The notes beneath the pieces are model-generated. The model saw nothing but the letters and a program-made list of their open reading frames with translations, had not been told where the DNA came from and did not search any database. Below, one piece after another: positions 31,904 through 61,194 of a DNA stretch of 64,000 nucleotides (its first letter is position 1; every line of letters starts with the position of its first letter). The position numbers and the translations under genes were made by a program. This stretch comes from an uncultured Enterobacteriaceae bacterium (GTDB lineage: Bacteria; Myxococcota_A; UBA9042): assembly GCA_964438735.1 (NCBI GenBank), contig CAYTLW010000007.1, positions 8,594-72,593 on the forward strand, given 5' to 3'.

Positions 31904-33871
31904 CTACTGCGGCGGGTCGATCGGCCACTTCATGGGCGGCATCTCATAAGGCTTGCTTGCGTCCGCCGGAGGTGGCGGCGGCGGCGGGGCACCACCTGCA
32001 GGATACTTGGTGGTAAAGGTGCTCAGGTGCAGGTGGTGGTGATGGAAGGTGTACCAGCCCTTGCCCGTATTGGTGGTCTCGTAGGCCAGGTGTGAGGCGA
32101 ACTTCTTGTAGCTCGAGGCGCTGATCTTGCCAGCGCTGTAGAGCTTCTTCGCCTCGGCTTCCAGCAGGGGGCCGATCTTGCCGTCGACGCCGATCACCCG
32201 CACACGAGGGCTGTCGAAGAGCCGCCCGATGAACAGGGTCGTACGCGGGACGTCCAGGATGTTGGGCGCGCCGACGCAGTGATATTGGTCCTTGCCGCCC
32301 GCCACGTGCGGGCACACGGGCTTGAGATGGTTGTTCTTCTGGCCGACCTGATAGTAGGCGATGTCGATGTCCCGGCCCCAGTCGTGGGTCGTCTTCGGGT
32401 GGCGCAACTGACCGCTGCTGGTCTTGGGGGTGGTGCCGTCGGCCATGCTCATATCGCCCAGGCCCAGCGGGAAGCTGCCAGGCATCAGGCAGGCCACCGA
32501 AGCGGCGGCGTACTTGACCAGCATGGTGGTGTCGTGGCGCAGCCAGCTGAGCTTGTCGCCGTGGGTGACCTTGTAGCCGTAGCCGTTGGTGGGCTTGAAC
32601 AACTTCACCTTGCTGCAGGCGGAGTTGCCCAGGGTGCAGGCGTGGCCGGGGATCTTGCTCAGGCAGCTGGCCTGGCCGCTGCACGAGGCGGTGTTGAAGG
32701 TGCACTTGCTGCCGCACTTCAGGGTGCCGCCGGAGTAGCCCAGGCCGGTGCACTTCATGTTGTTCAGGTCGGCGCCGTCGCACTGCTCATCGCCAGTGGC
32801 CTTGCCGTCGCCACACTTGGCGCCGCCGCCACCGGGGCAGGCTTTGGCGAAGTCGGTGCAGCAGTCGTTGTACTGGGTGCACTGATCGTCGCACTGGCAC
32901 TTGGCGTTGCTGTCGTACTTGCCGCACTTGCCGACGCAGGACAGCCCGCCGCCGGAGCCGCTATCCGAAGAGCCCGTATCCGTCGGCCCGGCGTCGGGAG
33001 CGCCGCCGTCGGTGCCACCTGCGTCGCTGCCGCCACCGACGCAGAGTGCGTCGTAGTCGGAGCAGCAGTCCTTGTACTGCTTGCAGGCGTCGTCGCAGTT
33101 GCACGGCGCCTGGGCGCCCAGGTACTTGCCGCACGAACCCTTGCAGGTGCCCTTGGTCGGGTCGGCGCACTTGGTCCAGCCGCACGTCTGCATGGCGTCG
33201 ATCAGCTTGCCGGCTTTGTCCGCGGCGGCGCCGCTGATGCCCAGCTGCTTGGCGCAGTCGTCGATGCTCTTGCCGGTCTTGTTGCAGGAGATGAGCGCCG
33301 CGCAGGCGGAGTCGGCCTTGCAGGCGGCGGTCTCCTGCGGGCACTGGCTATCCCAGCATGGGTTGGTATTGAAGGCGCCGCCGCCCGCGTCGCCGGTGCC
33401 GGCATCGACGGTGCCGCCGGTGTCCTTGGGGCCCCCGGTATCGGTCGGTCCGCCGGCATCGACGGGACCGCCTGTGTCCTTGGGTCCGCCGGCGTCGACG
33501 GTGCCGCCGGTATCCTTGGCTCCGCCGACGTCGCTGGGGACCGTATCCACGCCGCCGCCTGAGTCGATCGTGCCGCGACCGCCGCTATCGACATTGCCGC
33601 GACCTGCATCGCCTGGCACGCCTCGGCCGTTGCCATCGCCAGCGACAGTTCCGCCATCCTGGAGCGTCACGCCACCGTCTCCGCCGGTGGCACCGGCGTC
33701 TACGCCTCCGGTCGGGCCGCCGTCCGGGGTCACGCCGTCCACGCTGCCGTCTGGGTTGTAGTAGCCCATGGGCACGCCGCCGCCGGCGGTCGTACCCAGG
33801 CATGCGGGCAGGGGCAGGATCGAGGCCAGGGCCAGCAGGCGCAACAGCGGGCGGGCGGGGGAGTGGGTCAC
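31904..33871 (-). CDS. Secreted (lipo)protein: Gly/Asp/Thr-rich linker, two somatomedin-B-like Cys modules, C-terminal MepA-like LAS-family zinc metallopeptidase domain
   Basis: GTG start at 33871 (GGAGGA 4 nt upstream) gives signal peptide [24 protein letters not shown]. Two modules [35 protein letters not shown] and [34 protein letters not shown] match the 8-Cys SMB pattern of vitronectin (CKGRCTEGFNVDKKCQCDELCSYYQSCCTDYTAEC). C-terminal [11 protein letters not shown]...FHHHHLHLS resembles MepA SHQTGLDVDI / HMHVRL zinc ligands. Poly-Pro tail. Confidence 0.6.
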
Positions 33872-34022
33872 GATGTCCTCCACTGGGGGTCCGGAGTCCG
33901 TCGGGGTGTGGGGCGCGCGGCATAGCACAGGGTTGGTTGCAACGAAAGGTGGATTTGTGCGCCGGCGGGCAGAGGCGGGGTCTATTCTACCCTCGCCGCA
34001 GCCTTTGAACGGGAGCCCGACC

Positions 34023-36323
34023 ATGACCCACCGACTTGTCGCCCTCGCAGCCCTCTGCGCGATGCTCGCCCTTGCCCCTGTAGCCGAAGCGGAGGTGCCC
34101 GGCACCCTGGCCGTCTACGGCACGATCGGCAGCGCGGGGGGCGGTGCGCCCAGCGGCAAGTACGTGGCGACGTTCTCGATCTACGGCGCGGCGAGCGGCG
34201 GCCAGGCGGCCTGGACCGAGGGCCTGACGCCAATCACGGTCAATGGGGGGCGATTCAGCACGATCCTGGGCGCCAAGAAGCCGCTGACGGCCACCTTGCT
34301 GGCGTCGTTGAAAGAGGCCTGGCTTGGCGTGGCCGTGGATCTGAACAAGGAGCAGCCGCGGGTGCGCCTGCACACGGTCGCCTACGCCCTGCAAGCCCAA
34401 TCGGCGGCCGGGCTGGCCTGTTCGGGTTGCGTGACGGCGCAACACCTGGCCCCGGGCGCGATCTCGGCCGACAAGGTCGGCTTCACCTTCGCGGGCGCCA
34501 AGACCAAGGGTGGCCCGGCCAACAGCGCCCTGGACCTGCAGTGCACCGGCTGTGTCAGCGTGGGCGAGTTGAAGATCGATGGCGACCTGGATCTCGGCGG
34601 CAACGCGCTCAAGGCCAAGACGGCTGTGGTCGGCAACCTCAGCGCCCAGTCGATCAGCGCATCGAGCTTTGCCGGCGACGGCAGCAAGCTGACCGGCATC
34701 AAGACGCCGTCGGGCGCCTGCAGCGCCAAGGGCCACGTGGTCAAGGGCATCAACCCGGACGGTTCGCTGCAATGTGTGCCAGGTGGTGGCGCCTCGGGCC
34801 TGCCGCCAGACGGCATCGATGAGATCTCCAACAACCTGATCTTCAATCAGTTCGTCGACTCGGCCAAGAGCAAGGCGCCGGTGCCGATCCCGGACAACAA
34901 CCCCATCGGCACCTCCGACGTCATCGACTTCCCCGACGTGGGCCTGGCCCAGAAGCTCACCGTGCACCTCGAGGTGGAGAACTCGAACCTCAGCGCCGTG
35001 GAGTTGACCCTCTACGACCCGGCCAACCAGAAGTACGTATTGCTGCCCAAGGGCGTGGGCAAGGGCACCAAGCTCGTGACCAGCTACCCGGCGCCCAGCA
35101 AGCCGGCCTCTGGCGATCTGACCGCCTGGATCGGCAAGAATCCCAAGGGCAAGTGGCGCCTGAAGGTCACGGACGAAGCCTTCAAGAACAACCAGTTCGA
35201 CGGCGCTATCAAGAGCTGGCGCATCGACATCCAGACCCTGTCCAGCAAGAAGATTCAGATCAAGGGCGACCTGATCGTCGACGGCAGCGTGCAGGGCTCC
35301 AAGGGCTTCCAGATCGTCGGCGACACCGGATTTGCCGGCGCTGTGGTCTTCAACGAGGAGGTCAAGTTCAAGAAGTCGATCATCATCGAGGGTGGCATCG
35401 CGTTCGGCGACATCAAGAAGCAGTCCTTCCAGATCTGCGACGACCCCGACCCCAACGGCCCATGCATCGCCGAGCTCTCCTCGGGTCGACCCTTCCTGGA
35501 GGCGGCGCTGCATTGCGCGGCGCAGAAGGGCGACATCTGCACCGACAGCCAGTGCTACGCCATGCGTAAGGTCTCCAATGGCTCGACCATCTACAACTTC
35601 ACCCTGCTGCCCAATTGGACCAACTCCTTCGCCGACAACGACAGCGGTCAGTGGAGCTCGGTCAACGGCGGCACGGGCGACAACCACAGCCACACCAGCA
35701 ACTACCTGGTGCCCTGCTGCCACAACATCACGCCGATCGTGCCCGGCGAGCAGAAGGTCGCCGGCATCCGCGTGCTGAAGATCAACAACGCCGACAACGC
35801 CACCTGGGATACGGCCGTCCAGGCGTGCCTCAAGCTCAAGGCCGATCTATGCGACAAGGGGCAGTACCGGGTGCTGCGCAACAAGGGCAAGATCAGCGCC
35901 CGCATGTGGGCCTCGGATCACTCCGATAACGACAACACCTCGGGCAGCTACAAGAAGGGCATCGGCGGCGTATCCGACAATCCCACGCCGGGTCAGAAGT
36001 ACGGCTACGCCTGCTGCGCCACCGACCGGCAGAAGCTGGACTGCCCCGCAGGAGCGCAGAATGTGAAGGGCGTCTGCGTGGCCAAGATCCACAACAGCAA
36101 CGTCAACTGGAACACCGCCAGCACCGCTTGCGCTGCCCTGGGCGCTCGACTCTGCTCCATCGCCCAGTCGGCGGTGTTGCGCAAAGAAGGCAAGATCAAG
36201 ACCAGCGCCAGCTGGACGGCTTCGTACAGCGACAACGACGGCAACCAGGCCCATATTGGTGTCGGAAACGCAGGCGACGACCACACCTACAACTCAGGCT
36301 ACGGCTACGCCTGCTGCTACTGA
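34023..36323 (+). CDS. Secreted protein with beta-rich N-terminal region and two C-terminal Cys-containing C-type-lectin-like domains each ending YGYACC
   Basis: Signal peptide [23 protein letters not shown]|E. C-terminal tandem ~120-aa domains (W[ND]TA..AC..LGA.LCS...VLR..GKI ... GYGYACC) that resemble the CTLD N-terminal consensus. Confidence 0.55.
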
Positions 36324-36357
36324 GCCGGGTCGGCGACCATGGGTGCGAACGAAGCGG

Positions 36358-39300
36358 TCAATGACCACGCACGTACATCGTCGTATTGGACCGACACGCA
36401 CAGCCGCATAACGCCCCTGGCTTGTCCTGGCAGACCGTGCCCTGGGCAGCGTTGGGGTTCTTGCCGTAGTAGGTCAGCGTCTTGTACTGCCCGCCGCCGC
36501 CGTTGGAGCAGCCCACCCCCCAATGGGGCGTCTCGCCGGAGCCCTTGCAGGTGTAGCTGCCGCCCTTGGAGCCGTTGAAATACGCGTACGAGCCCGTGAG
36601 CTGCTTGCCGCTGGACCAGCTCCACTTCAACGTGGTCTTGGGGGAGCGATACCAGCGGTTGCCATAGAGATAGAGGTACTCCTTGGTGGTATTGCCATGC
36701 AGTGACGACGCCACGTTCGGGTAGAGCTTGGTCCAGCCACCGCCGGCGACGCTCATCAAGCAGACGGCGCTGAAGGCGTCGCCGATGCCGCCGCCGTTGG
36801 GGTCGATCCAGTAGCTGCCGTTGCCCTTGGAGCTGCCGCTGTCGAGGATGTGCTTGCAGCTGAGCGCCGGGTTGGACTTGGTGCCCACCGTCTTGGGCAC
36901 GCACTTGCCGCTCTGGCACCACTTGGCGGCGCCGCAGCCCTTGCCGTTGGCGACGTTCTTGGTCGTGCAGCCCTGGCCTTTGTCGCAGCCGTTGAGCGTG
37001 CAGGGGTTGCCGTCATCGCATTTCTTGGCCGAACCCGGCTTGCAGCTGCCGCCGTTGCAGGCGTCGTTAAGGGTGCAGACGCTGCCGTCGCTGCATGGGG
37101 CGGCGTTGTTGGCGTTGATGCAGCCCTTGGACGCATCGCAGAAGTCGGTCGTGCACAGCTTGTTGTCGTTGCAGTTCTTGGCCGAGCCCGGTTTGCAGCT
37201 GCCACCGGTGCAGATGTCGTTGGTGGTGCAGGCGTTGCCGTCGCTGCAGGGCTTGGTATTGGCCTTGTGGGTACAGCCCGTAGCCGGCGCGCAGGCATCG
37301 TCGGTGCACAGCTTGCCGTCATCGCAATTCGGCGCGGCGCCCGGGGCGCATTTGCCGCCGGTACAGGTGTCCTTGAGGGTGCACTTGCTGTTGTCAGAGC
37401 AGGGCTTGGTATTGGCCGTGAACGTGCAGCCCTTGGCCTTGTCGCAGCCGTCGTCGGTGCAGAGTTCGCCGTCGCTGCAGGACTTCTTCTTGCCGGGGAT
37501 GCAGAAGCCGCCCAGGCAGCTGTCGGTCAGGGTGCAGACGTCGCCATCGCTGCACTTGGCTGAATTGGGAGCGTGCTGGCAGCCCTTGGTCTTGTCGCAG
37601 GAGTCGTCGGTGCAGACCTTGCCGTCATCGCAGACCAGCGGCGCGCCGGCCGCGCACGACTTGTCCTTGCAGGCGTCGGGTTTGGTGCAGGCGTTGCCGT
37701 CGTCGCATGGCGCCGTGTTGGCCACGTGCAGGCAGCCGTTCTTCCAGTGGCAGCCGTCGGTGGTGCAGTTGTTCTTGTCGTCGCAGACCTTGGGCCCGCC
37801 GGGCGTGCAAGCGCCGGCCTTGCAGATGTCCTTGTCGGAGCAGGTGTTGCCGTCGTTGCAGCCGGCGCTGTTGTGGGTGAAGACGCAGCCCTTGGCCTTG
37901 TCGCATGCGTCATCGGTGCACACGTTGCCGTCGGCGCAGGTCACCGGATTGCCGGGCGCGCAGGTGCCTGCTTTGCACCCATCGTTGGCGGTGCAGGCGT
38001 TGCCGTCGTCGCAGGGCAGGGCGTTGGCGGGGTGGGCGCAGCCGTTGAGGTGGTGGCAGGTGTCGTTGGTGCAAAGTTTGCCGTCGTCGCAGCTCTTCGG
38101 CTTGCCGGGCGCGCATTTGCCGGCCAGGCAGCCGTCGGACTCGGTGCAGACGCTGCCATCGCTGCACGGCGCGCCGGGTTTGGCGTGCACATGGCTGCAG
38201 CCGGTCTTGGCTTCGCATTCATCTACGGTGCAGACATTGCCGTCGTTGCAGACCAGCGCCTTGCCGGGCTGACATTTGCCAGCCGCGCAGCCGTCACCCA
38301 CGGTGCAGGCGCTGCCGTCGTCGCAGGCCGAGCTGTTGGGTGTGAAGGTGCAACCCTTGGCCGGATCGCATCCGTCGGTCGTGCACACCTGCCCATCGCT
38401 GCAGGTCACGGGTTTGGCGGCGCACTTGCCGCTGGCGCAGACGTCCTCCTTGGTGCAGGCGTTGCCGTCGTCGCAGGCGCCCGTGTTGTGCACATGGGTA
38501 CAGGCCGTCTTGGCGTCGCAGCCGTCGGTTGTACACGGGTTGCCGTCATCGCAGGACTGCTTGCCCGGCCCCTTGCATTCGGTAGCGGTGCAAGCGTCGG
38601 CCAGGGTGCAGGCGTCGCCGTCGTCGCACGCGACGCTGTTGGCCAGGTGGGTGCAGCCGGTCTTCTTGTCGCAGCTGTCGTCGGTGCAGAGGTTGTCGTC
38701 GTTGCAATCGAGGGCCGGTCCGCCCGTGCAGACACCTTTGTTGCAGATGTCCTTGGTGGTGCAGGCGTCGCCATCATCGCACGCCGGCCCGGTCTGCTCG
38801 TTGTGCACGCAGCCCTTGATCGCGTCACAGCCGTCGATCGTGCAGGTGTTGTTGTCGTCGCAGACCACCTTCGTGCCGATGCATTTGCCTTCGGTACACG
38901 CGTCGTCGGAGGTGCAGGCGTTGTTGTCATCGCAAGCGCCCGCCTGGGGCAGATGATTGCACTTGCCGGCGTTGCAGCTGTCCGCCGTGCAGACCATGTT
39001 GTCGTCGCAGACCCCCGGGTCGGCCTCGTCGGTGTTGCCGTCGCAGTCATCGTCCTGGGTGTTGCAGGTCTCGCTCACCGCAGCCGGCGCGTCGCAGGCG
39101 CCCAGGCCCTTGGCGTTGCAGGCGCGCTTGCCGGTACAGGTGCCGGCGCCATTGGTTGTGGAACAGCCGGTGACGAGTCCCAGCTCCTTGGCCCGGGCGC
39201 TGCACGGACAGGTCAGGTCGGCGCGTTGACATTGTTTGGCCTTGGCGCCACCCACGCTGACCACGTCGACGCACTGCCAGCCCTCCGGGCAGGTCACATC

Positions 39301-39846: not shown

Positions 39847-39896
39847 GATCCCCCCCTCGGTCGTCATAACAGGGTAGCGGTCTTCTGGGGGTCGGC

Positions 39897-42659: not shown

Positions 42660-43519
42660 CAGAACCGCACCGCCCAGACCAGCCCGCGGCCTGTCGGCAC
42701 CACGGCGCTCGAGGTCGCCGGCTGTCCGCTGAGCCACCAGATGCCTGCGCCGGCCATGACGGCGCCGACGGTCATCAGGCTGACGCCGATGGCCATGCGC
42801 GTATTGGCCGACTCCTGGCGCGCCAGGGCGTCGTCGCGATCGATGCCGACCACCTTGCCTGCGCTGTCCTTGTTGTTGAGTTGCTCTTCGAGGGCATCCG
42901 CCTGATCGAGCGCGTCGAAGGTCAGCCAGCCGCCGGCAGCTGCCGCGACCACACCGGCCCCGACGCCGCCCCAGGCCAACAGGCGCGTGGTGCCTGCGGC
43001 CGCGCGCGCTCTGGCCGCCGCGTCCGCCTTCGCCTTTCGCTCCGCCGCCAGTTTCGCCGCTGCGGCTGCCGCCGCCTTCTGCGCCGCTTTTTGTTCCGCG
43101 GCGCGTTTGGCCGCCTGTTGCGCCGCATCGGCTGCCTTCTTGCGCTCCTCTTTGGCCTGCTGCCAGCGCTTGCTGGCCTTGGCGCGCAGTGCGTGGCTGG
43201 TCGGGGCGCGTCGCAGGAAGATCTCCCAGGCCTTCTCAGCCTCTTGCCAACGCTTGGCCTTGGACTCGCAGAGGGCGGCGCTGTAGAGGTACTCGACCGT
43301 GGCCGGATCGATGGTCGCCGCCTGCCGGTAGAGCTGGCTGCACAGCCGCCACTGCTTCGCCTTGGCCTTCGACGCGGCGACATAGGAGATGGCCGCCGCC
43401 TCCTCGGCCTTGCTGACCGCCTGGCCCCAGGCGGTCGAGCACAGCAAGATGGCGCCCAGCGCACACAGGCCGGCCAGGTACCGCAAGTGGGGTCCGGCTT
43501 TCGCTGACGGGGCGTGCAT
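42659..43519 (-). CDS. Membrane protein: signal peptide, TPR-like helices, Ala/Lys/Glu-rich coiled-coil, two C-terminal TM segments
   Basis: Real start ATG 43519 (MHAPSAKAGPHLRYLAGLCALGAILLCSTAWGQA), lying inside a longer GC-artefact ORF. ~70-aa AKAE-rich segment. TM helices LLAWGGVGAGVVAAAAGGWL and IGVSLMTVGAVMAGAGIWWL. Translationally coupled to the downstream FGE-domain gene. Confidence 0.5.
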   Translation of the reverse strand: MHAPSAKAGPHLRYLAGLCALGAILLCSTAWGQAVSKAEEAAAISYVAASKAKAKQWRLCSQLYRQAATIDPATVEYLYSAALCESKAKRWQEAEKAWEIFLRRAPTSHALRAKASKRWQQAKEERKKAADAAQQAAKRAAEQKAAQKAAAAAAAKLAAERKAKADAAARARAAAGTTRLLAWGGVGAGVVAAAAGGWLTFDALDQADALEEQLNNKDSAGKVVGIDRDDALARQESANTRMAIGVSLMTVGAVMAGAGIWWLSGQPATSSAVVPTGRGLVWAVRF

Positions 43520-52007: not shown

Positions 52008-55000
52008 TTGCACACCCCCGCCGAACACTTCTTGCCATCACCGCAGTCGCTGCCGTCGGCGTAGGTCTTCTTGACGCATCCCGTCGACGGCGTGCAGCCG
52101 CTCTTGGTGCAGGGGTTGTTATCCTCGCAAGCTGTGGCCTTGACCGCGCCGCACTTGCCGGCCGTCTTGCAGTCCGTATGGCCCCACGAGTTGATGCGCA
52201 GCAGCCAGGCGTCGCCACCGCCGGCGCCGAAGGTGTTGGTCAGCCCGGCAGCCAGCGTGTCCTCGCCCAAGGTGACGGCGGCCTTGCCCCAGTCTCTGCC
52301 CTTGCCGCCGATCCAGGCCGACCAGCGCGCTGTTCCATCGCTGCCGACGCGATACCACCACAGCGCCGAGGTGGTCGAGGCGGAGCTGTATCGTCGCTCG
52401 CCGACCATCACCCAGCCGCCGGGCATGGCCGTCAGGCCCCAGGCGGTGGTCTGGTAGCTGCCGCCGGTGCCGTAGGTCTTCTCCCAGAGCAGCTTGCCGC
52501 TGTCGTTGACGCTCGCCAGCCAGGCCTTGCGATTGCCGAAGACCACGTCGCGGCTGCCGGCCACCACCACGGCACCCTTGACAGCCGCCACCGCATGGGC
52601 GCGATCGTCGAGCTTGCCGGCACCGAAGCGCTGCGCCCAGGCGAGCTTGCCCGCGCTGCTGCTGCGTATGACGAACGCCTGCCTGCCGATGGTGAAGGAC
52701 TGGGTCCAGCCGACCGCCACCACGTCGCCCTGGCTCGTCTCCACCACGTCGTGGGCTTCGTCCTTTGCGGCGCCGCCGTACTGCAGCGACCACATGAAGG
52801 CGCCTGCCTTGCTGAAGCGCAGAACGTCGGCCTTCTCCTTCTTGCTCACCGCGGTGTGACCGGCGACCAGCAGGTCCCCGTTGGCCGCGGCATGTACCGC
52901 CTGCAAGCCGTCCTTGCCCGAACCGCCACGATAGGTCTGCCAGACCTTGCTGCCATCGGTTTTGGCCTTGTACAGCCACATATCTTCCTTGTTCTTGCCG
53001 ATCTTGGTGTCCGACTGACCGACCATCACCAACGCCCCGTCGGAGGTGGCAGCCAGGTCGTTGAAGCCGTCCTTGCCCGCTGCCGTGCCGAAGAACTTGC
53101 TCACCTTGGCGGTGCCCGTGGCTGTGGCGACGACCAGGTAGCCATCGGCATCGCCGCCGGCGGTGGAGCGGCTCGTTCCGGCCAGCGCGAACGTGCCATC
53201 AGCCAGTGCGACGACACCGCCAGCTTCGTCCAGGCCCTTGCCGCCATGGGCCACCGAGAACAGCCGACCGACACCAGAGTCGTAGCAGGCCCCCGCCTTG
53301 CATCGGCCGATGTTGCACGAGCTCACATTCGGCTGGCACGGCGTGCCCAACTGGTTGACGACCACGCAGCCCTTGGCGTTGTCGCACTTGTCGTCGGTAC
53401 AGGCGTTGCCGTCGTCGCAACTGACCGGCGCGCCGGGACTGCAGCTGCCGCCACCACAACTGTCGCCCTTGGTGCAGCTGTCGCCATCGCTGCAGCTGGT
53501 GTTGTTGTTCACATTCTGGCAGCCGACCGCCTTGTCGCAGCTGTCGTCGGTGCAGCTGTTGCCGTCATCGCAGTTGGGCGGCTTGCTACCGACACAGGAA
53601 CCCGCGTTGCAGTAGTCGGCGGTGGTGCACTTGTCGCCGTCATCGCAGTTGCTCGTATTGTTGACGTTCTTGCACCCTGAATCCGACTGGCAGCTGTCTG
53701 TGGTGCACGGATTGCCGTCGTCGCAATTCTTGGCCGGTCCGCCGGCGCATTTTCCCTTCGAGCAGACATCTTTGGTCGTGCAGACGCTACCATCGTCGCA
53801 GGCGTCGCTGTTGTTGACCGGCTTGCATCCCGTGGCGCCGTCGCAGCCATCGGTGGTGCAGGGATTGCCATCGTCGCAATTCGGCGGCTTCGAGCCGACG
53901 CACGCTCCGGCGGCACACTTGTCCACGGTCGTACATTTATCGCCGTCGTCGCAGTTCGCGGTGTTGTGGACCTGCTGGCATCCCTTCAGCTTATCGCAGC
54001 TGTCGCTGGTACAGGCATCGCCATCGTCGCAATTGGGAGCGCTCGCACCCACGCACTTGCCAGCGGCACATTTGTCTACCGTGGTGCACTTGCTGCCGTC
54101 GTCGCAGCCCAGCGAATTGGCGGGGTGGGTGCAGCCGGTCGACACATTGCAGCCGTCGGTGGTGCACGGGTTGCCATCATCGCAGTTCGGCGGCTTGCTG
54201 CCGCTGCATGAACCGCCCTTGCAGGCGTCGACCGTGGTGCACTTGCTGCCGTCGTCACACGACGCGCTGTTATTGGCGTGCGTACATCCGGAGACCTTGG
54301 CGCAGGCGTCCGACGTGCACGGATTGCCGTCATTGCAATCGGGCGGGGTGCTGCCCTTGCAGGCGCCGCCTTTGCACGTGTCGACTGTGGTGCACTTGTC
54401 GCCGTCGTCGCAACCCGCGCTGTTGGCCACGTGCTTGCAGCCCGTCGCTGGCGAACAGCTGTCATCGGTGCACGGCTTGGCGTCGTTGCAGTCGACCTTG
54501 GCGCCAGGCTGGCAGCTCTTGCTGGCGCATTTATCATTCGCCGTGCACTTGCTGCCGTCGTCACAAGGCGAGGTGTTGGCGACGTGCGTGCAGCCGCTGA
54601 GCTTGTTGCAGCCATCGTTGGTGCAGGGGTTGCCATCATCACACGACAAGGCGCTGCCCTTGATGCAGGCGCCCGAGGCGCACGCGTCCTTGACGGTGCA
54701 GACGCTGCCGTCGGCGTCGCAGGGTCCGCCTTCATTGCGCGGCGTCAGGGCGCACTTGCCGGTCTTGGTGGCACATACGTTGTGCTTGCAAGCCGTATCG
54801 CCGCTACTGGAGCAGGTGATGACGGTCTTCGGGTCGACCTTGCACGCATAGGGCGGCTTGGACGTGTCGCAATACAACGTGCCGTTGCAGACATTGCCGT
54901 CCTCGGACGCTGCGCAATCGGCGTTCTTGATGCACGCGCAGGTGTTCGTGCCCGGCTTGCAGACGCCGTTGACGCAGGCGTCCGGCGTGGTGCAGGGATC

Positions 55001-58000
55001 ACCATCGCTGCACGGGGCCTTGGCCGGCTGATGTTGGCAGCCGCCGGATACCACAGGGCTGCAGCTGTCGGCGGTGCAGGGGTTCTTGTCGTCGCACTTC
55101 TTGGCCACGCCACCGCTGCACGAGCCCTTGTTGCACGCCTCCCCGACGGTGCAGGGGTTCTTGTCGTCGCAGGCGCCCGCGGCTGGTTTGTGCACGCAAC
55201 CGGTCGACGCGTTGCAGCTGTCATGAGTGCAGTCGTTGCCGTCGTCGCAGTCGATGTTCTTGCCCTTGCATTCGCCGGCGACGCAGGCATCGGCCTTGGT
55301 ACAGGCGTTGCCATCGCTGCACGTGCCGGTGATGGCGATGGCCTTGCAGGCGCCGCTCTTGGACTCGCAGATGTCGTTGGTGCAGGTCTTTCCGTCATCG
55401 CAGACGGTCGCTGCACCCGAGGTGCAAAGGCCGGCCTTGCAGACGTCGTTCTTCGTGCACAGATTGCCGTCCTCGCAGGACGCGTTATTGGCTGTGTTGA
55501 CGCAGCCCTTGGCCTTGTCACATCCGTCGTTGGTGCACGGGTTGCCGTCGCCACAAGAGGGCGCTGCACCGCCGACACATTTGCCGCCTTTGCATGCGTC
55601 ACCGCCGGTGCACGCATCGCCGTCGTTGCACGCCTTGTTGTTGGGCACGTGGGCGCAGCCGCTGGACTTGACGCAGGCGTCCGCGGTGCATGGGTTGCCG
55701 TCGTCGCAAGGCTTCGGGGCGCCGGGTTTGCACGCTCCCTGTTTGCAGGTATCGCCGACCGTGCACACGTCGCCATCGCTGCAGGGCGAGGAATTCGGCG
55801 TGTGGGTACAACCCTTGCCCGCGTCGCACTTGTCGAATGTACAGGGGTTGGTGTCGTTGCAGGCCAGCTTTGGCCCCGCAAGGCACTTGCCCGAGTTGCA
55901 GGCGTCGCCCGAGGTACACACGCTGCCGTCAGCGTCGCAGGGCTGGCCCTGGTTGGCCGGCAGGCTCTGGCATTTGCCGCTGGTCTTGTCGCAGGAGATC
56001 GCCCGGCAGGGGTCGCTGCTGGTGCCGCAATTCACGATGGATGAGGGGATGATCTTGCACGAGAACGGCGGTTTGGACGTGTCGCAATAGAGCTTGCCGT
56101 TGCAGACATTGGCGTCGTCCTTGGCGGTGCATTCGATGTTGGTCTTGCAGCCGCAGATGTCCTTGCCCGGCAGGCACTTGCCAGCGCCACAGAGGTCCTT
56201 CTCCGTGCAGGGATTGCCGTCATCACAGGGCTTCAGCGGGTTGACCGTGACGCAGCCCTTGGCCTTGTCGCAGACGTCGATGGTGCACTCATTGTTGTCG
56301 TTGCAGTCCACCTTGGGACCGGGCTTGCAGCTACCAGCGGCGCACAGGTCTGACTTGGTGCAGGCGTTGCCATCGTCGCACGCACCGCCGATGGCGGGAT
56401 GGGCGCAGCCACTGCCCGGCTTGCAGAAGTCGGCCGTGCAAGCATTGCCGTCATCACATGCCTTGGCCTTGCCCGTGCACCCCCCGGCCGTGCAGGCGTC
56501 ATTGACCGTGCAGAGGTTGCCGTCGTCGCACTTGTCGCCCGCGAAGGTCGACTTGCATGCGCCGGTCGCCGCCACGCAACCATCCGTCGTGCAGGGGTTG
56601 CCGTCGTCGCAGTTCTTGGTCGCGCCGGGCTTGCAGGCCCCCTTGGCGCAGACGTCTCCCAAAGTGCATGGGTCGTCGTCGCTGCACGGGGCCTGCGTTG
56701 CTTGGTGGACGCAGCCCTTCAACGCGTCGCAGCCGTCGCTGGTGCAGCCGTTGCCATCATCACAGGCCAGAGCGGCGCCGGGCTTGCAGGTCAGCCCGTC
56801 GCAGACATCCCCCTTTGTGCACGCGCTGCCATCATTGCAGGGCTGGCCGAACTTGGCCGGTGCCGGCAGCCCGTCGCATTTGCCGGACTTGGTATTGCAG
56901 CCGTAGACCGCGCAAGGCAGGGGTTTGGCCGGGCACGCGACGTCACCGGCGGGATCCTTGACGCAGACCGACTTGGGGCCGGAGGTGTCGCAGACGAGCG
57001 CCGCCGTGCAGAGGTTGTCATCATCCAGCTTGGCGCAGTCTGCGTCGCTGGCGCAGCCGCAGACGCTCGGTCCGGACACGCACTGGCCATCAAGACAGGC
57101 GTCACCCTTGGTGCAGAGCAGGCCGTCCTCGCAGCCCGTGCCGTCCTTTTCCAGGCTCGCCGCGCACTTGCCCGTCGCCGGCACGCAGCCGCCCGCCGCG
57201 CAGCCGGGATCGCCTGGCTTGTCACAGGTCACCACGGTCGCCGGATTGAGCGCGCACTGGAAAGGAAGCTTCGACTTGTTGCAATACAGCGTGCCGTTGC
57301 ACAGATTGCCATCGTCCTTGACCGCACAGTCCCCATCGCTGGTGCATGCGCAGGCATTCGGCCCGGCCACGCAGCTGCCCAGGTCGCAGGCGTCGTCCGG
57401 CGTGCAGGCGTTGTTGTCGGCGTTGCAGGCGTGGCCCTGGGCCTTGGCGACCACTTTGCAGTTGCCCGTGGCCGGCTGGCACTGGTTGGTCGCGCAGGCG
57501 GTGTCGCCGCCAGGGCAGTTGATGACAGAGTTTGGATCGACCTCGCACTTGAAGGGCAGGGTCGCCTTGCTGCAGAACAGGCTGCCATTGCAGGCATCGC
57601 CATCCTCGTGGGCCGCACAATCCTTGTCGGCCTGGCACGCGCAGTCGTTGGCACCGGCAGCACATGTGCCTTCGATGCAGTGGTCGTTGGCGGTGCAAGC
57701 GTTGCCGTCGGCGTCGCAGGGTTTGCCCTCGTTGATCCCGACAAAGCTGCACGTGCCAGTCTTGGGCGCGCAAGCTGCGGCGGCACATTGCCCGTCCAGG
57801 GGTGGCTTGCAGACCACCAAGGTCTTGGCGTTGACCTTGCAGCGGAAGGGCGCCTGGGACTTGTCGCAGAACAGGGTGCCGTTGCACAGGTCGCCGTCCT
57901 CGAACGCGCCGCAGTCGGCGTTGGATGTGCAGGTGCAGCTGAACTTGCCCGACTTGCACGAGCCCGCCGCACAGGCGTCGCCCACGGTGCAGCCATTGCC

Positions 58001-59197
58001 ATCGGAGCAGGGTTTCGCCTCGTTGATGGGCAGGACGCCACATTTGCCGCTCTCCGGCTGGCAGGCGGTGACGTGACAGGGCCCCTCCTCGCCGGTGCAG
58101 GTGACCACCGTGGCCGGGTTGATTCGGCAGCCGGGCGTCTCGGCGGCGAGATCGCAGAAGAGCTGTCCTTCGCACTTGTTCTTGGGCTGCAATGGCGTGC
58201 AATCACTTTCGGATTTGCACGGGCAGATGTTCTTGCCGGCGGCGCATTCGCCACCCTTGCACACGTCGCTCTTCGTACAGGCGTCGCCGTCGGTGCACGT
58301 GGCGCTCTGGGGAAGATCGGTGAGCGCGCACTCGCCGGATTTGGGGTCGCAGAGGTTCTTTCGACACGGGCTGTCCAGGGCGCCGCTGCAGGTGATCAGG
58401 GTCGCTGGATTGACTTTGCAGGTGAATGGGAAGCCTGAGGTGTCGCAATACAGGCTGCCATTGCAGAGGTTGCCGTCATCTTGGCCTGTGCAGTCGGCGT
58501 GACTGAGACACTCGCAAAGCTCGGTGCCCGCGGTACAGACGCCCGACTTGCAGGTATCCCCGGCCGTGCAGGGTTTGCCATCATCGCAGTTGGCGCCATC
58601 CGGTTCGGGCTTCGCGGTGCAGGTGCCCGTCTTGGCGTCGCAGACCTGCGACGAACAGGCTGCCTCCCCCTTGGCACATTGTACGACGCTGGCCGGGTTC
58701 ACCTTGCACACCGGCGGGTCGACGTCGTGGTCGCAGTAGAGCGTGCCGTTGCACAGGTCGCCATCCTCCTGGGACGCGCAATCCGAACTCAACTGGCAGC
58801 CGCAAGTGTTGGGCCCGGGAACGCAGGCGCCGCTGTCGCAGGTGTCGTCTTTGGTGCAGGAGTGGCCGTCGTCGCAAGACGTGCCTGCGGCCGATGGGAC
58901 GAAGGCGCAGGCGCCGGACAGGCAGGCAGAGGTCAAACAGGGAGAAGTGGCGTCGGGGCAGTCATCTCTTGTGCCACATTGCGCTGCGGCATCGCTCGGG
59001 GCAGGTCCCACTTCGGCCAGCCCGCCATCGACGTGCACGTCGGACGTTCCAGCCAGGCTGTCGCCAATGCCGGCGCCCGTGGGTTCGTCGCAAGACGCCA
59101 TCGCGAGCAGGCAGATTGTGGCAAGAAAGACTACATTGGCTCGCGCGCAGCGTGCGCCAGCGGAGAACGGGCTTCGAGTCATTTCGCGTAGTCGCAT
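52004..59197 (-). CDS. Giant (~2397 aa) Cys-rich repeat lipoprotein: same two module types (~60 repeats) plus C-terminal beta-propeller and Cys cap
   Basis: Lipoprotein signal peptide (MRLREMTRSPFSAGARCARANVVFLATICLLAMASC). Alternative ATG at 59182. Continuous 7.2-kb ORF, first gene of the minus-strand operon. Confidence 0.85.
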   Translation of the reverse strand: MRLREMTRSPFSAGARCARANVVFLATICLLAMASCDEPTGAGIGDSLAGTSDVHVDGGLAEVGPAPSDAAAQCGTRDDCPDATSPCLTSACLSGACAFVPSAAGTSCDDGHSCTKDDTCDSGACVPGPNTCGCQLSSDCASQEDGDLCNGTLYCDHDVDPPVCKVNPASVVQCAKGEAACSSQVCDAKTGTCTAKPEPDGANCDDGKPCTAGDTCKSGVCTAGTELCECLSHADCTGQDDGNLCNGSLYCDTSGFPFTCKVNPATLITCSGALDSPCRKNLCDPKSGECALTDLPQSATCTDGDACTKSDVCKGGECAAGKNICPCKSESDCTPLQPKNKCEGQLFCDLAAETPGCRINPATVVTCTGEEGPCHVTACQPESGKCGVLPINEAKPCSDGNGCTVGDACAAGSCKSGKFSCTCTSNADCGAFEDGDLCNGTLFCDKSQAPFRCKVNAKTLVVCKPPLDGQCAAAACAPKTGTCSFVGINEGKPCDADGNACTANDHCIEGTCAAGANDCACQADKDCAAHEDGDACNGSLFCSKATLPFKCEVDPNSVINCPGGDTACATNQCQPATGNCKVVAKAQGHACNADNNACTPDDACDLGSCVAGPNACACTSDGDCAVKDDGNLCNGTLYCNKSKLPFQCALNPATVVTCDKPGDPGCAAGGCVPATGKCAASLEKDGTGCEDGLLCTKGDACLDGQCVSGPSVCGCASDADCAKLDDDNLCTAALVCDTSGPKSVCVKDPAGDVACPAKPLPCAVYGCNTKSGKCDGLPAPAKFGQPCNDGSACTKGDVCDGLTCKPGAALACDDGNGCTSDGCDALKGCVHQATQAPCSDDDPCTLGDVCAKGACKPGATKNCDDGNPCTTDGCVAATGACKSTFAGDKCDDGNLCTVNDACTAGGCTGKAKACDDGNACTADFCKPGSGCAHPAIGGACDDGNACTKSDLCAAGSCKPGPKVDCNDNNECTIDVCDKAKGCVTVNPLKPCDDGNPCTEKDLCGAGKCLPGKDICGCKTNIECTAKDDANVCNGKLYCDTSKPPFSCKIIPSSIVNCGTSSDPCRAISCDKTSGKCQSLPANQGQPCDADGSVCTSGDACNSGKCLAGPKLACNDTNPCTFDKCDAGKGCTHTPNSSPCSDGDVCTVGDTCKQGACKPGAPKPCDDGNPCTADACVKSSGCAHVPNNKACNDGDACTGGDACKGGKCVGGAAPSCGDGNPCTNDGCDKAKGCVNTANNASCEDGNLCTKNDVCKAGLCTSGAATVCDDGKTCTNDICESKSGACKAIAITGTCSDGNACTKADACVAGECKGKNIDCDDGNDCTHDSCNASTGCVHKPAAGACDDKNPCTVGEACNKGSCSGGVAKKCDDKNPCTADSCSPVVSGGCQHQPAKAPCSDGDPCTTPDACVNGVCKPGTNTCACIKNADCAASEDGNVCNGTLYCDTSKPPYACKVDPKTVITCSSSGDTACKHNVCATKTGKCALTPRNEGGPCDADGSVCTVKDACASGACIKGSALSCDDGNPCTNDGCNKLSGCTHVANTSPCDDGSKCTANDKCASKSCQPGAKVDCNDAKPCTDDSCSPATGCKHVANSAGCDDGDKCTTVDTCKGGACKGSTPPDCNDGNPCTSDACAKVSGCTHANNSASCDDGSKCTTVDACKGGSCSGSKPPNCDDGNPCTTDGCNVSTGCTHPANSLGCDDGSKCTTVDKCAAGKCVGASAPNCDDGDACTSDSCDKLKGCQQVHNTANCDDGDKCTTVDKCAAGACVGSKPPNCDDGNPCTTDGCDGATGCKPVNNSDACDDGSVCTTKDVCSKGKCAGGPAKNCDDGNPCTTDSCQSDSGCKNVNNTSNCDDGDKCTTADYCNAGSCVGSKPPNCDDGNSCTDDSCDKAVGCQNVNNNTSCSDGDSCTKGDSCGGGSCSPGAPVSCDDGNACTDDKCDNAKGCVVVNQLGTPCQPNVSSCNIGRCKAGACYDSGVGRLFSVAHGGKGLDEAGGVVALADGTFALAGTSRSTAGGDADGYLVVATATGTAKVSKFFGTAAGKDGFNDLAATSDGALVMVGQSDTKIGKNKEDMWLYKAKTDGSKVWQTYRGGSGKDGLQAVHAAANGDLLVAGHTAVSKKEKADVLRFSKAGAFMWSLQYGGAAKDEAHDVVETSQGDVVAVGWTQSFTIGRQAFVIRSSSAGKLAWAQRFGAGKLDDRAHAVAAVKGAVVVAGSRDVVFGNRKAWLASVNDSGKLLWEKTYGTGGSYQTTAWGLTAMPGGWVMVGERRYSSASTTSALWWYRVGSDGTARWSAWIGGKGRDWGKAAVTLGEDTLAAGLTNTFGAGGGDAWLLRINSWGHTDCKTAGKCGAVKATACEDNNPCTKSGCTPSTGCVKKTYADGSDCGDGKKCSAGVCK

Positions 59198-59331
59198 CAG
59201 CCCATAGCCCCAACACGCCAGAGTCGGTCCGATCAACCTACTCTCCGCCCGAACCGGCAGCAATTTTTCGCGCGCGAGCGCTCGACCGCTGTTCACTGGA
59301 CCAGGGGCGCACCCTGAGCGATTCTCCCGGC

Positions 59332-61194
59332 GTGAGTCAGGACTCCCCAGTGCCGGGATCGGTCGGCAACGATCCCTTCATCGATCGCGTCTTCGGCGGC
59401 CGCTATCGAGTGGTCCGTCGCCTGGCCCATGGCGGCTTCGGCGCCGTCTACCAGGCGGTGCACGAGGGCACCGAACAGGAGGTCGCGCTCAAGATCCTGC
59501 CGCTGAGCGGACAGGGCCGCTACGACGGCTCTCTGGATCGATTCATGCGCGAGGCGAGGGTCACCGCGAGCCTGAGCCACCCCAACACCATTCGAGTCTT
59601 CGATGTGGGTGGCGGTGCGGAGGGTGAAGAGCCGCCCTGGCTGGCCATGGAGCTGATCCGGGGCCCCACCCTGGAGGAAGTGCTGGTCTCTTTGGCCCGA
59701 CGTGGCCGCACCATGAGCGAGCAGCAGGCCATCGACCTGACCCTGCCGGTGACCGGCAGCCTCGCCGAAGCGCACGCCGTGGACCTGGTGCACCGAGACA
59801 TGAAGCCATCGAACATCATGCTCTCGCCGGTACCTGGCAATCCGCCGGTGATCAAGCTGCTGGACTTCGGCTGCACCCACGTCCGGGGTTCGGATATGAC
59901 CGCGGCGGGCGCCGTATTCGGCACACCCGGCTACATGAGTCCGGAACAGATCGAAGGCACGGAGCTGGACGGACGTTCAGACCTCTTCGCGCTCGGCATC
60001 GTCTTGCACCGTTGCGTGACCGGTCGGACGCCGTTCGAAGACATACAGCCCATGCCCTTGATGTATCGCTATGCCCACGTGGACGTGCCCGACCCGCGGC
60101 GCGTATTTCCGGCCATGAGCGATCCCTTCGCCGATCTCCTGCTGGCGCTCCTGGCCCGCGGCTGTGCAGGCCGGCCTGCTGGGGCCGCAGTGCTGCGCGA
60201 CCGGCTGCTGGCGATCCGCCCCCACTGCAACGTGCTCGCCTTCAGCGATCGGCCCGAGCGCCTGGCCGGGGACATGGCCACCAGCCTGCACAGCTCGCGC
60301 ATGAGCCCGGTGGGGCTGGCAGCACTGGTCGACCTGGTCGAAGACGAAGGCGGACATCGCATCGCCGCCCTGCCCACCATCAGTCAGGAAGCGCAGGCGG
60401 CGGATGACCTGGGCACCATGGCCTATCACAACCCCAACGCCGGCCAGCTCACCGAAGACTACGACGCGCCGCCCGTGCACGAGGCCTCAACGCCGGCCCC
60501 CGACCAAGCGGTCGGCCGCCGACCCACGAAGCTGAGCCACTCGTCGCCATTGCCGCCGCCAGCCGGCGGTCGCGACCCCATGAACGAGCTTCCCGATCCG
60601 CGTTTCGCCGTGGATCAACCGCCCGTCGAGGCCCAGCCTGACCCGCGACCGGATCCGACAAGGGTCAAGCAGGCCCTCACTGCTGGCCAGGAATCCAGGC
60701 CAGAGCCAGCCACCAAGCAGACGTCGTTCACGCCCCGTTGGCCCCTGTGGCTGGCCATCGTCGCCGTCGTCGCCTTGCTGGTCTGGTGGCAGCGCGGCCA
60801 GGGTCATGCCCCCTCCCCGCCCGCCGACCCGGCCACAGTGACGCATCCCGCGGCTACGCCCGCTCCCACAACTGCGCCGAACACGCCGGGCGCGGCGGAC
60901 GCCAAGAGCGCGGCTGCTCCCGTCGTAGCCGATGGTGGCAGCGCTAAGGCCGACGGCGGCGCCGGGGCCGACGCTGGCGCAACCCCAGGTGCCGACAGCG
61001 GTTCCTCGCCAACAGCCGCCGCCGCGGACGCGACTGGCAAGTCAGCCAGGCGCTCCCCCAAGCCCCGGCCCAAGCCGGTCATCAAGAAGGGCCCCACCGG
61101 GAAGCCGCGCCCCAAACCGAAGACCGGCAAGGCCGATGCTGGCAGCGAGCCCGCCAAACCCCCGCGGCTCAAGCCCATGGTCTTCGACGAGTAA
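59332..61194 (+). CDS. Membrane-anchored Hanks-type Ser/Thr protein kinase with extracytoplasmic Pro/Ala/Lys-rich tail
   Basis: Kinase subdomains (GGFGAVYQA, ALKIL, HRDMKPSNIM, DFG, GTPGYMSPE). TM helix WPLWLAIVAVVALLVWW. C-terminal low-complexity tail ending KPRPKPVIKKGPTGKPRPKPKTGK. Start assigned to GTG 59332, ~25 aa before the Gly-loop. This start is approximate, and no ATG exists upstream of the kinase domain. Confidence 0.75.
   Translation: MSQDSPVPGSVGNDPFIDRVFGGRYRVVRRLAHGGFGAVYQAVHEGTEQEVALKILPLSGQGRYDGSLDRFMREARVTASLSHPNTIRVFDVGGGAEGEEPPWLAMELIRGPTLEEVLVSLARRGRTMSEQQAIDLTLPVTGSLAEAHAVDLVHRDMKPSNIMLSPVPGNPPVIKLLDFGCTHVRGSDMTAAGAVFGTPGYMSPEQIEGTELDGRSDLFALGIVLHRCVTGRTPFEDIQPMPLMYRYAHVDVPDPRRVFPAMSDPFADLLLALLARGCAGRPAGAAVLRDRLLAIRPHCNVLAFSDRPERLAGDMATSLHSSRMSPVGLAALVDLVEDEGGHRIAALPTISQEAQAADDLGTMAYHNPNAGQLTEDYDAPPVHEASTPAPDQAVGRRPTKLSHSSPLPPPAGGRDPMNELPDPRFAVDQPPVEAQPDPRPDPTRVKQALTAGQESRPEPATKQTSFTPRWPLWLAIVAVVALLVWWQRGQGHAPSPPADPATVTHPAATPAPTTAPNTPGAADAKSAAAPVVADGGSAKADGGAGADAGATPGADSGSSPTAAAADATGKSARRSPKPRPKPVIKKGPTGKPRPKPKTGKADAGSEPAKPPRLKPMVFDE

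Follow-up and report, generated by a model that had tools for sequence, protein, structure and literature searches.

The locus described here is probably an uncharacterised surface-adhesion module, and a smaller unit than the eight-gene ensemble that a preliminary description of this DNA had proposed; the adhesion reading is probable because genes for huge lipid-anchored stalk proteins with lectin-like heads, like those of this locus, are also accompanied in other bacteria by a membrane kinase and a small TPR protein. The explanation we favour, and to which we give about an even chance, is that five genes (G, F, E, D and C) together with the divergently oriented gene H encode modular adhesins of the cell surface, whose heads can be swapped, along with their kinase/TPR partner. 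The window (64,000 nt, the whole stretch of DNA that was analysed) comprises positions 8,594 to 72,593, forward strand, of contig CAYTLW010000007.1 (assembly GCA_964438735.1) from an uncultured Enterobacteriaceae bacterium (GTDB Myxococcota_A; UBA9042); the source organism is probably a marine, uncultured myxobacterium.

Eight open reading frames were found at window positions 31904-61194, and the locus contains, as noted before, no metabolic genes. The public gene calls give the same lengths for A, B, C, D, E and F (655, 766, 1162, 920, 286 and 2807 aa, respectively), and the call for gene G starts 27 codons later, by which the signal peptide is lost. All eight products had been regarded as exported and six as lipoproteins. 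We recognised five lipoproteins, four with a signal peptide and a lipobox (A, C, D, G) and one with an atypical lipobox (F, SAAC); H is not exported but is a membrane kinase, and the signal peptides of B and E look like those of SPI substrates.

The five-gene operon and its products

The genes G, F, E, D and C form a tight operon on the minus strand, to which all coordinates given for them refer. The start-stop coupling reported earlier can be read directly (ATGA at the G/F junction and TGATG at the E/D junction) and argues for co-translation; the F-E and D-C gaps measure 64 and 50 nt. Gene H is indeed divergent from the operon, with approximately 150 nt separating it from G. Neither a terminator scan of the five-gene unit nor a sigma-70 scan gave a signal above chance. 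Sigma-54 control by an adjacent enhancer-binding two-component system was considered and rejected, as no TGGCAC-N5-TTGC site was found upstream of G or A. The single good sigma-54 site (27653..27638) is located upstream of a collagen-like cytochrome/molybdopterin oxidoreductase operon; the cytochrome, which had been pointed out previously, exists as an open reading frame (27569..26808) with GXY repeats and three CxxCH motifs.

The proteins G, F, D and C would be lipid-anchored, disulfide-stapled modular proteins, each with a long repeat stalk, whose heads differ: propellers in G and F, a non-catalytic FGE/CTLD fold in D and a COLFI/fibrinogen-like head in C. Gene G (52004..59182) encodes a 2,392-aa lipoprotein (lipobox MASC) with a stalk of 8 K-type and approximately 45 CTDC units (nt 53303-58981; Dicty_CTDC 4.7e-52) and one putative beta-propeller region (nt 52163-53287; Delta-60 repeat 6.6e-4). 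Gene F (43584..52007) encodes a 2,807-aa lipoprotein with 9 K-type and approximately 52 CTDC units (nt 46128-51830; Dicty_CTDC 7e-43) and two putative propeller regions (nt 45018-46127 and 43743-44852) with a Cys module between them. Both proteins have a short Cys tail that ends in CSAGVCK, and together they measure 5,199 aa, in agreement with the earlier figure of about 5,200. Support for the propellers is indirect: many homologues of these regions (25-35% identity) carry PF17164 or bear the delta-60 repeat name, and the scores of the DUF5122/delta-60 HMMs on the regions themselves are low (TIGR02608 19.5 bits, cutoff 76.5; PF17164 E 4.5).

Gene D (39897..42659) encodes a 920-aa lipoprotein in which five K-type units (nt 40665-42347) precede an FGE-sulfatase-fold domain at the C-terminus (nt 39918-40649; PF03781 1.2e-40). 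The preliminary assignment to FGE/SUMF1 holds for the fold (140 bits, profile positions 2-255 of 255), but not for the catalytic Cys pair. Where solved FGEs read 'GGSYLCHDSYC', D aligns with 'GGSLV---STA', and the copper-binding C-H-x-S-Y-C is thus missing. D is therefore not a true FGE, and formylglycine-generating activity can be ruled out; there is also no sulfatase gene in the locus. The product of gene C (36358..39846), a 1,162-aa lipoprotein, has a Cys-rich N-terminal region with a MopE-like DCDGNTDE motif, 27 CTDC units (nt 36892-39009; Dicty_CTDC 4.3e-48) and a COLFI/GGGWT fibrinogen-like head (nt 36361-36891; COLFI 5e-10, GGGWT_bact 1.7e-11). A fibrinogen-related C-terminal domain had been claimed, of which the motif stands: COLFI reaches 39.5 bits (cutoff 26.2) while spanning only positions 24-85 of the 233-position profile, GGGWT_bact reaches 43.9 bits (cutoff 30), and the head matches the procollagen C-propeptide 5k31 (8.7e-5), but the Fibrinogen_C HMM gave no match on it.

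The small protein E (42659..43519; 286 aa) is an envelope protein that carries a TPR of two repeats, one segment rich in Ala and Lys and two hydrophobic segments rich in Gly and Ala, and whose sequence ends in RF. Profile scans assigned it to no family, a word-indexed homologue search returned E alone, its profile retrieved only generic TPR proteins from the PDB, and PHROGs gave nothing. Gene H (59332..61194, plus strand) encodes a Hanks-type Ser/Thr kinase, as described before, with a kinase domain (nt 59404-60198; Pkinase 7.1e-39, 134 bits, cutoff 31.7), a single transmembrane helix (nt 60739-60789) and a predicted extracytoplasmic tail rich in Ala, Pro and Lys. The TPR/membrane protein E and the kinase H may be envelope partners of the stalk proteins in anchoring, assembly or signalling. 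We infer these roles, as well as surface exposure, rod shape and ligand binding of the stalk proteins; the lipoproteins could also face the periplasm.

More than 130 copies of two kinds of six-Cys repeat, described as Myxococcus cysteine-rich repeats, had been reported for the locus. The number is about right, but both the family and the Cys count per unit differ: the roughly 150 repeats comprise approximately 130 four-Cys Dicty_CTDC (PF00526) units and 22 copies of a second unit. With the Pfam HMM (gathering score 27 bits, multiple tandem units being required), C, F and G scored 161, 144 and 174 bits, with 13-19 stretches reported for each, and D remained under the cutoff with 23.4 bits. The alternative identity, TIGR02232/DUF4215, was discarded because no whole protein matched in the HMM scan; the sole match (13.3 bits, cutoff 20.8) was found in A when the segment was scanned alone. 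The CTDC units alternate in a 51-aa a-b pattern. The second, K-type unit of approximately 97 aa contains an undescribed core of approximately 72 residues with 10 Cys and occurs eight times in G, nine times in F and five times in D. Sequence-only searches of the PDB with the K-unit and the C-termini of A and B were uninformative except for a weak ADAM Cys-rich match (E 0.006). At the DNA level the repeats have a period of 153 bp and are merely 68-75% identical, which indicates that the arrays are old and rules out both recent expansion and an assembly artefact.

Recurrence of the kinase and the TPR protein

Our comparison set consisted of approximately 50-55 other PF00526 loci, many of them on truncated contigs. 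A second lineage (L039/L041), known from metagenomes, encodes a kinase like H, an E-like protein and a 2,831-aa PF00526 lipoprotein head to tail, 4 nt apart, with an FHA protein and a second kinase immediately downstream. The two H-like kinases of L039/L041, which flank the PF00526 giant directly upstream, are 50-53% identical to H, and the E-like protein of L039 (34% identity over 253 aa) ends in RF like E itself. A further E-like protein with the same ending adjoins a PF00526 giant in another metagenomic lineage, L060 (29% identity over 272 aa). E-like genes were thus found at two of the approximately 55 other loci and an H-like kinase at one; the extra PF00526 loci L058, L059, L061 and L062 contain neither a kinase nor an E-like gene. 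As E is otherwise an orphan, its recurrences beside PF00526 giants are unlikely to be due to chance. Myxobacterial genomes are rich in Ser/Thr kinases, and a single kinase adjacency is therefore weak on its own; the arrangement in L039/L041 lends the kinase link real support.

The most serious competitor of our explanation, although we consider it only about half as probable, is that there is no system at all, but a lineage-specific pile-up of paralogous surface proteins that arose by tandem duplication and domain shuffling, with the kinase, A and B adjacent by chance and secretion as the sole shared trait. G and F are indeed colinear paralogues with 46% identity, and D and C carry repeats that match the F and G repeats at 30-45%. 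Kinases beside other CTDC genes are only 30-33% identical to H and differ in architecture (the one in L027, tried as an H-like candidate, contains TPRs and is of a different type), relatives in L002 and L003 are found in different contexts, A and B are not syntenic elsewhere, and homologue searches revealed no close orthologue of the whole operon. However, a pile-up would not readily account for a rare family such as E recurring by PF00526 giants in two lineages, once with an H-like kinase across a 4-nt gap, nor for the coupled junctions of the operon. In addition, in a third lineage a D-type FGE-like head, also without the Cys pair, is fused to an F-type protein with propellers (P0276). Heads are also exchanged on the same kind of stalk, with a MAM-like head in L003 and six Laminin_G_3 domains in L039/L041.

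A bolder version of the adhesin reading would make H, E and the PF00526 giants a conserved outside-in signalling unit, in which a disulfide-stapled surface antenna of approximately 100 nm, fitted with interchangeable lectin heads (propeller, FGE-like, COLFI or LamG), signals to the transmembrane Ser/Thr kinase that a ligand, prey or a kin cell has been touched. We consider this unlikely; if true, bacteria would have an equivalent of kinase-coupled adhesion receptors.

The neighbouring genes A and B

Gene A (31904..33871, minus strand) encodes a 655-aa lipoprotein that has a linker rich in Gly, Asp and Thr, a single degenerate repeat of the Cys-rich acidic type and two Somatomedin_B domains of 8 Cys each (nt 33038-33148 and 32837-32941, minus strand), which had been recognised correctly (PF01033 60.5 bits, cutoff 23.1, E 2e-16). 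Missed at first was a MepA-like LAS zinc-peptidase fold (nt 32003-32677, minus strand) with an H-x6-D pair (H496-x6-D503) and the C-terminal His ligands H610 and H615. It shares 20% identity with MepA and has no Pfam or NCBIfam match; such domains form a family of 399 representative clusters that goes undetected by present profile libraries. PHROGs gave nothing for A. Gene B (34023..36323, plus strand) encodes a 766-aa predicted secreted protein, in which a conserved N-terminal region is followed by a P-domain (nt 34953-35228, plus strand) and three tandem C-type-lectin-fold domains (nt 35424-36320, plus strand). Structure confirmed these previously suggested folds, the best match to the head being the CTLD tip of Bd2740, but the Lectin_C HMM stayed at 11 bits (cutoff 22.6), and the EPN/QPD ... 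WND Ca2+/sugar motif is absent from the domains, each of which has a conserved D-N-D instead. Going by their domains, A would be an SMB-tethered, MepA-like candidate peptidoglycan peptidase and B a triple-CTLD head, both on the same tether-plus-head plan as the stalk proteins. Targeting of the CTLD- and FGE-fold genes by a diversity-generating retroelement (DGR) was examined and rejected: blastn (word size 7) revealed no template repeats, as the 3' end of each of the genes A to D matched only itself, and there is no reverse transcriptase among the called genes.

The synteny comparison that had been suggested as a check gives a divided picture. E and the H-like kinase recur by PF00526 giants, and the operon, the kinase-E-giant arrangement and the E-giant pair can be upheld, but the closest homologues of B (71% and 69% identity) are both located in unrelated neighbourhoods, and no counterpart of A or of B was seen at the approximately 50 PF00526 loci examined. 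The eight genes therefore do not form one demonstrable ensemble; A and B appear to be independent neighbours of the operon.

This also bears on the idea of a predation toolkit, in which the stalk proteins and the CTLD-headed B recognise prey like the mosaic fibres of Bdellovibrio and A cuts prey peptidoglycan. Besides being unlinked to the operon elsewhere, A could equally remodel the cell's own wall, and B shows no sign of a trimeric fibre and no PHROG, tail-fibre or fibre-type Pfam match, by which membership in the Bdellovibrio fibre superfamily was also rejected. Moreover, population variants differ by just 1-4 residues without any change in length, which excludes hypervariability and is contrary to the expectation for an arms race. 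We thus regard a predation toolkit as unlikely.

Cysteine-rich stalks and comparison with known systems

C, D, F and G combined contain 851 Cys, and Cys content is 10-13%. To our knowledge, the Dictyostelium matrix repeat has no solved structure. In Dictyostelium, proteins with PF00526 belong to the extracellular matrix (PMC4931340), and in chicken CREMP, a structural fibre, the a-b modules with four Cys adopt an anisotropic structure that depends on disulfides (PMC3068167). Both precedents, and the Cys content itself, would suit a disulfide cross-linked coat or matrix, a sheath like Dictyostelium EcmA/EcmB or the CREMP of eggshell membranes, instead of specific adhesins. We nevertheless think this improbable: the numbers of Cys would allow all of them to be paired inside their own modules, and each protein has a distinct globular, binding-type head that is exchanged between lineages, a feature more in keeping with recognition than with bulk structure. 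A role in metal sequestration or redox buffering is hardly credible, despite the MopE-like motif of C and the co-occurrence of homologous domain families with Cu-binding_MopE repeats, given a regular Cys spacing typical of disulfide-bonded modules and the lack of any metal transporter or resistance gene among the genes called at the locus.

A repeat stalk with a terminal binding-type domain fits surface adhesion, and adhesins of this large, modular type, with lectin tips on repeat stalks, are already known. New here is the stalk made of the Dictyostelium matrix repeat, an undescribed version of the stalk-plus-tip adhesin, with heads that are otherwise characteristic of the matrix proteins of animals (COLFI, CTLD, LamG and SMB, beside a Hedgehog/MepA-type fold) and with a kinase/TPR partner that recurs. 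The locus adds data on the bacterial deployment of 'eukaryotic' extracellular-matrix domains and supplies a new 10-Cys unit and a MepA-like domain family. If the partnership with E and H holds, it would make it possible to test how marine, uncultured Myxococcota sense surfaces or prey or keep hold of them.

Among known systems, the teneurin-like lipoproteins of myxobacteria, SPII proteins of Myxococcota, list PF00526 among their N-terminal modules for display of a large C-terminal payload (bioRxiv 10.1101/2025.11.11.687626); the proteins described here lack the YD-shell, the NHL/FN-plug superfold and toxin domains. In contrast to MepA, the penicillin-insensitive murein DD-endopeptidase (peptidase M74, LAS superfamily; PDB 1tzp), the peptidase-like domain of A is fused to two SMB modules and a lipid anchor. 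The mosaic adhesive trimer (MAT) fibres of Bdellovibrio bacteriovorus, e.g. Bd2740, likewise combine a stalk with an exchangeable adhesive tip and draw on a mixture of adhesion-related folds, lectin and TNF/C1q-like ones among them, but are homotrimeric beta-prisms related to phage tail fibres (PMC10769870), whereas the stalks of G, F, D and C consist of Cys-knot repeats, and B, with three CTLDs in a single chain and a P-domain, has only the tip fold in common with them. D resembles the non-catalytic FGE-fold lipoproteins PorK/GldK, PvdO and TvpA, to which it shows weak sequence matches, in being a lipoprotein whose FGE fold is devoid of the copper-binding Cys pair; its domain is, however, carried on a Cys-repeat stalk of approximately 650 aa, and, unlike in the setting of those proteins, neither type IX secretion genes nor a DGR accompany it. 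Finally, Dictyostelium EcmA/EcmB/PsiA are secreted proteins with dozens of tandem copies of the same 24-residue four-Cys repeat. The proteins of this locus differ from them in being bacterial and lipid-anchored, in having no PA14 domain and in interleaving the a-b pattern with K-type units on stalks that end in propeller, FGE-like or COLFI heads.

Organization and repeat arrays of the giant lipoproteins

Five minus-strand genes, G (59182..52004, 2,392 aa), F (52007..43584, 2,807 aa), E (43519..42659, 286 aa), D (42659..39897, 920 aa) and C (39846..36358, 1,162 aa), make up the proposed operon, from which the membrane kinase gene H (59332..61194, plus strand, 620 aa; Pfam Pkinase, 7e-39) diverges. 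The start-stop coupling noted in the preliminary description is present at G/F (ATGA) and at E/D (TGATG), gaps of 64 nt and 50 nt separate F from E and D from C, and a scan for terminator-like and sigma-70-like signals returned none above chance. The models of genes A to F are the same in public gene calls; the public call of G begins 27 codons downstream, with loss of an otherwise canonical lipoprotein signal. Near-identical contigs of the window, whose G+C content is 63-70%, occur in four JGI metagenomes (3300007511/7512/8954/9008), and the window also matches a 138-kb metagenomic scaffold (ENA ERZ23498639, SUTE22-1 scaffold_185). Six lipoproteins had been proposed; a lipobox is found in A, C, D and G and in an atypical form (SAAC) in F, whereas B and E resemble signal-peptidase-I substrates.

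The bulk of the repeats belongs to Dicty_CTDC (PF00526; C 4e-48, F 7e-43, G 5e-52), of which a pattern count gave 130 four-Cys units, an alternating a-b pair measuring 51 aa; the arrays have a DNA period of 153 bp with 68-75% identity. The second repeat, the K unit of ~97 aa, is present in 22 copies (five in D, nine in F, eight in G) and has 10 Cys within its first ~72 residues (CxC-x5-C-x7-CxGx3C...); it matched no Pfam or NCBIfam model, and a match to the ADAM Cys-rich domain was marginal. The reported number of more than 130 copies of two repeat kinds is about right (130 plus 22), but their type is not; six Cys had been assigned to both. The Myxococcus cysteine-rich repeat was rejected as the identity of these repeats: the whole proteins gave no match, and the single hit, in A, was sub-threshold. 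F is a colinear paralogue of G (46% identity), and the repeats of these two proteins are shared by D and C.

The repeat arrays are combined with varied heads. Direct matches of the propeller regions of F and G were weak; their homologues, all at 35% identity or less, often carry PF17164 (DUF5122 beta-propeller), and some are named delta-60 repeat proteins. When the last 177 residues of C were scanned alone, COLFI (5e-10) and the NCBIfam model 'fibrinogen-like YCDxxxxGGGW' (1.7e-11) were detected, but since these matches span only the first ~60 residues, what had been called a fibrinogen-related domain is supported as a motif and not as a complete domain. The FGE domain of D was confirmed (Pfam FGE-sulfatase, 1e-40) and could be aligned to solved FGEs (4e-17), in which the copper-binding Cys pair, 'GGSYLCHDSYC', lies opposite 'GGSLV---STA' of D, a gap plus substitution. 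Because the Cys pair is absent, D as predicted from its sequence cannot make formylglycine, and it can be likened to the non-catalytic FGE-fold proteins PorK/GldK, PvdO and TvpA, all three of which are among its matches.

Kinase, E and giant proteins at related loci

Relatives among species-representative genomes were MAGs only, labelled Myxococcales or 'Deltaproteobacteria ... MYXO'; with the Myxococcales origin of named B homologues, this makes an uncultured member of Myxococcota the probable source. P0276, a lipoprotein from another metagenome, has two propellers as well as CTDC units, and its FGE-like domain is Cys-less; judging from these domains, it is in effect an F+D fusion. It neighbours a G-like protein with the same '...C.AGVCK' tail. 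At L013 (3564-14236), the N-terminus of a G-like PF00526/propeller lipoprotein contains genuine acidic Cys repeats (CGDGxC...DC); next in order are a sulfatase-family gene, the P0276 fusion and an FG-GAP/ASPIC protein.

A metagenome scan seeded with the C.AGVCK tail yielded 44 loci, two of which overlapped and were merged (L039/L041, 15,968 bp). At this locus, from a second lineage, a kinase shares 50-53% identity with H and has its TM helix and low-complexity tail laid out as in H. The E homologue, 4 nt downstream, is 34% identical over 253 aa and ends in RF as E does. Beyond it lie genes for a 2,831-aa lipoprotein, in which six Laminin_G_3 domains accompany a PF00526 stalk, for an FHA protein and for another H-like kinase. 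Here (L039 1362-10623, L041 1-10732) the first kinase has an N-terminal CPxCG zinc-ribbon-like motif, the second is its paralogue, the E homologue is a TPR protein, the giant carries thrombospondin-type-3-like DxDxD motifs and the FHA protein is a membrane protein. In a third lineage (L060), two PF00526 genes precede an E homologue near the contig end. As E has no other detectable relatives beyond these two loci, its recurrence beside PF00526 genes is unlikely to reflect chance.

Other PF00526 giants adjoin alpha-2-macroglobulin, TonB receptors, sulfatase and other genes. For example, in L002 (4273-9846), from a Myxococcota MAG from activated sludge, genes for alpha-2-macroglobulin (1,858 aa) and DUF2330 lie directly upstream of that for a 1,834-aa PF00526 protein.

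Genes A and B and the collagen-like cytochrome

The domains of A and B were sought at ~50 PF00526 loci and were absent from all of them. The evidence is against A and B being part of a wider ensemble, and the claim of an eight-gene system was overstated; what is supported is an operon-like core with recurring kinase and E links.

Gene A (33871..31904, minus strand, 655 aa) does encode the two somatomedin-B (SMB) modules ascribed to it (Pfam, 2e-16). A family of 399 representative clusters is built on its C-terminal domain, which was overlooked previously and had no match by sequence in Pfam, NCBIfam or PDB. H496-x6-D503 and H610/H615 are conserved in this domain. A is thus a lipoprotein in which a LAS-type zinc-peptidase fold, most likely that of a peptidoglycan endopeptidase, is tethered behind two SMB modules. 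In this MepA-like domain family (P0122-P0271), which escapes current Pfam and NCBIfam models, the LAS-fold domain is always C-terminal and the N-termini vary, from two SMB modules (P0122) to Big_7, MopE, Dicty_CTDC and a lamin tail (P0190, 1,395 aa); P0236 (4,098 aa) has five MopE motifs. Between lipid anchor and SMB modules is a Gly/Asp/Thr/Pro-rich linker, GGP[KT]DTGG[TP]VDA, whose coding DNA (33398-33533) is repeated in tandem at periods of 18, 36 and 54 bp.

In B (34023..36323, plus strand, 766 aa), Pfam adds a proprotein-convertase P-domain (6e-8), and the last 299 residues form three tandem 90-residue Cys domains. The AlphaFold model of this head (13 homologues; pLDDT 86) has a high pTM of 0.89 over all three domains, an indication that the three pack against one another, perhaps imitating a trimeric tip within one chain. 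The B family is large (432 matches), with the N-terminal 55% conserved and the C-terminal head swapped; named homologues derive from Myxococcales MAGs. Its members (P0027-P0121) are secreted proteins of ~700 aa in which the conserved N-terminal half and P-domain are joined to COLFI and/or Fibrinogen_C, F5/8 type C (discoidin), TLD, DUF4215 or triple CTLD heads, and several paralogues often share a contig (e.g. three on a 178-kb contig). The neighbourhoods of the nearest homologues (71% and 69% identity) are unrelated to this locus. The 71%-identical one (L010, JGI 3300008954), in a housekeeping context, comes from a sample that also contains a near-identical contig, and is either a paralogue from the same genome or a gene of a sister population.

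The collagen-like cytochrome described upstream of the locus was recovered as a lipoprotein ORF (26808-27569, minus strand) in which three CxxCH haem motifs come after ~30 G-X-Y triplets; the public call retains only its last 101 aa. It lies upstream of genes for a molybdopterin oxidoreductase, a 4Fe-4S protein and a NarJ-like chaperone. Of the sigma-54-type sites in the window, the best (TGGCACGCTTGCTGCA, 27638-27653, minus strand) is ~70 nt upstream of this ORF and adjoins genes for a phosphonate-binding-type protein, a histidine kinase and a sigma-54 activator. The only good site belongs to this predicted cytochrome/molybdopterin oxidoreductase operon, which is the most likely target of the sigma-54 two-component system beside A.

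A candidate adhesin system and its known relatives

There is about an even chance that G, F, D and C act as adhesins, lipid-anchored and displayed on the cell surface, with E and H as envelope partners. Rigid, disulfide-stapled stalks would hold varied binding-type heads off the cell, and E and H would act as conserved partners in the envelope. The stalks may be rod-shaped, as suggested by chicken CREMP, whose alternating four-Cys modules adopt an anisotropic, disulfide-dependent fold (PMC3068167), and by Dictyostelium, in which PF00526 proteins are matrix components (PMC4931340). Surface exposure is suggested by size, since a periplasm could hardly accommodate 50 or more modules in one stalk.

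That the genes are a chance cluster of paralogues sharing no system is unlikely; the core is supported by the G/F paralogy, the repeats that D and C share with G and F, the P0276 fusion, and L039/L041 and L060. A predation toolkit is doubtful in still greater measure, a structural coat highly improbable, and metal binding can practically be dismissed.

Large Cys-rich lipoproteins are unsurprising in this phylum; it is the domain mix and the recurring kinase partnership that deserve follow-up. In the literature we found no description of giant PF00526 lipoproteins, the K unit, the E family or the kinase-E-giant arrangement. Repeat-stalk adhesins with exchangeable tips are exemplified by the MAT fibres of Bdellovibrio (PMC10769870), and myxobacterial teneurin-like lipoproteins have been listed as using PF00526 as one of their display modules (bioRxiv 10.1101/2025.11.11.687626).
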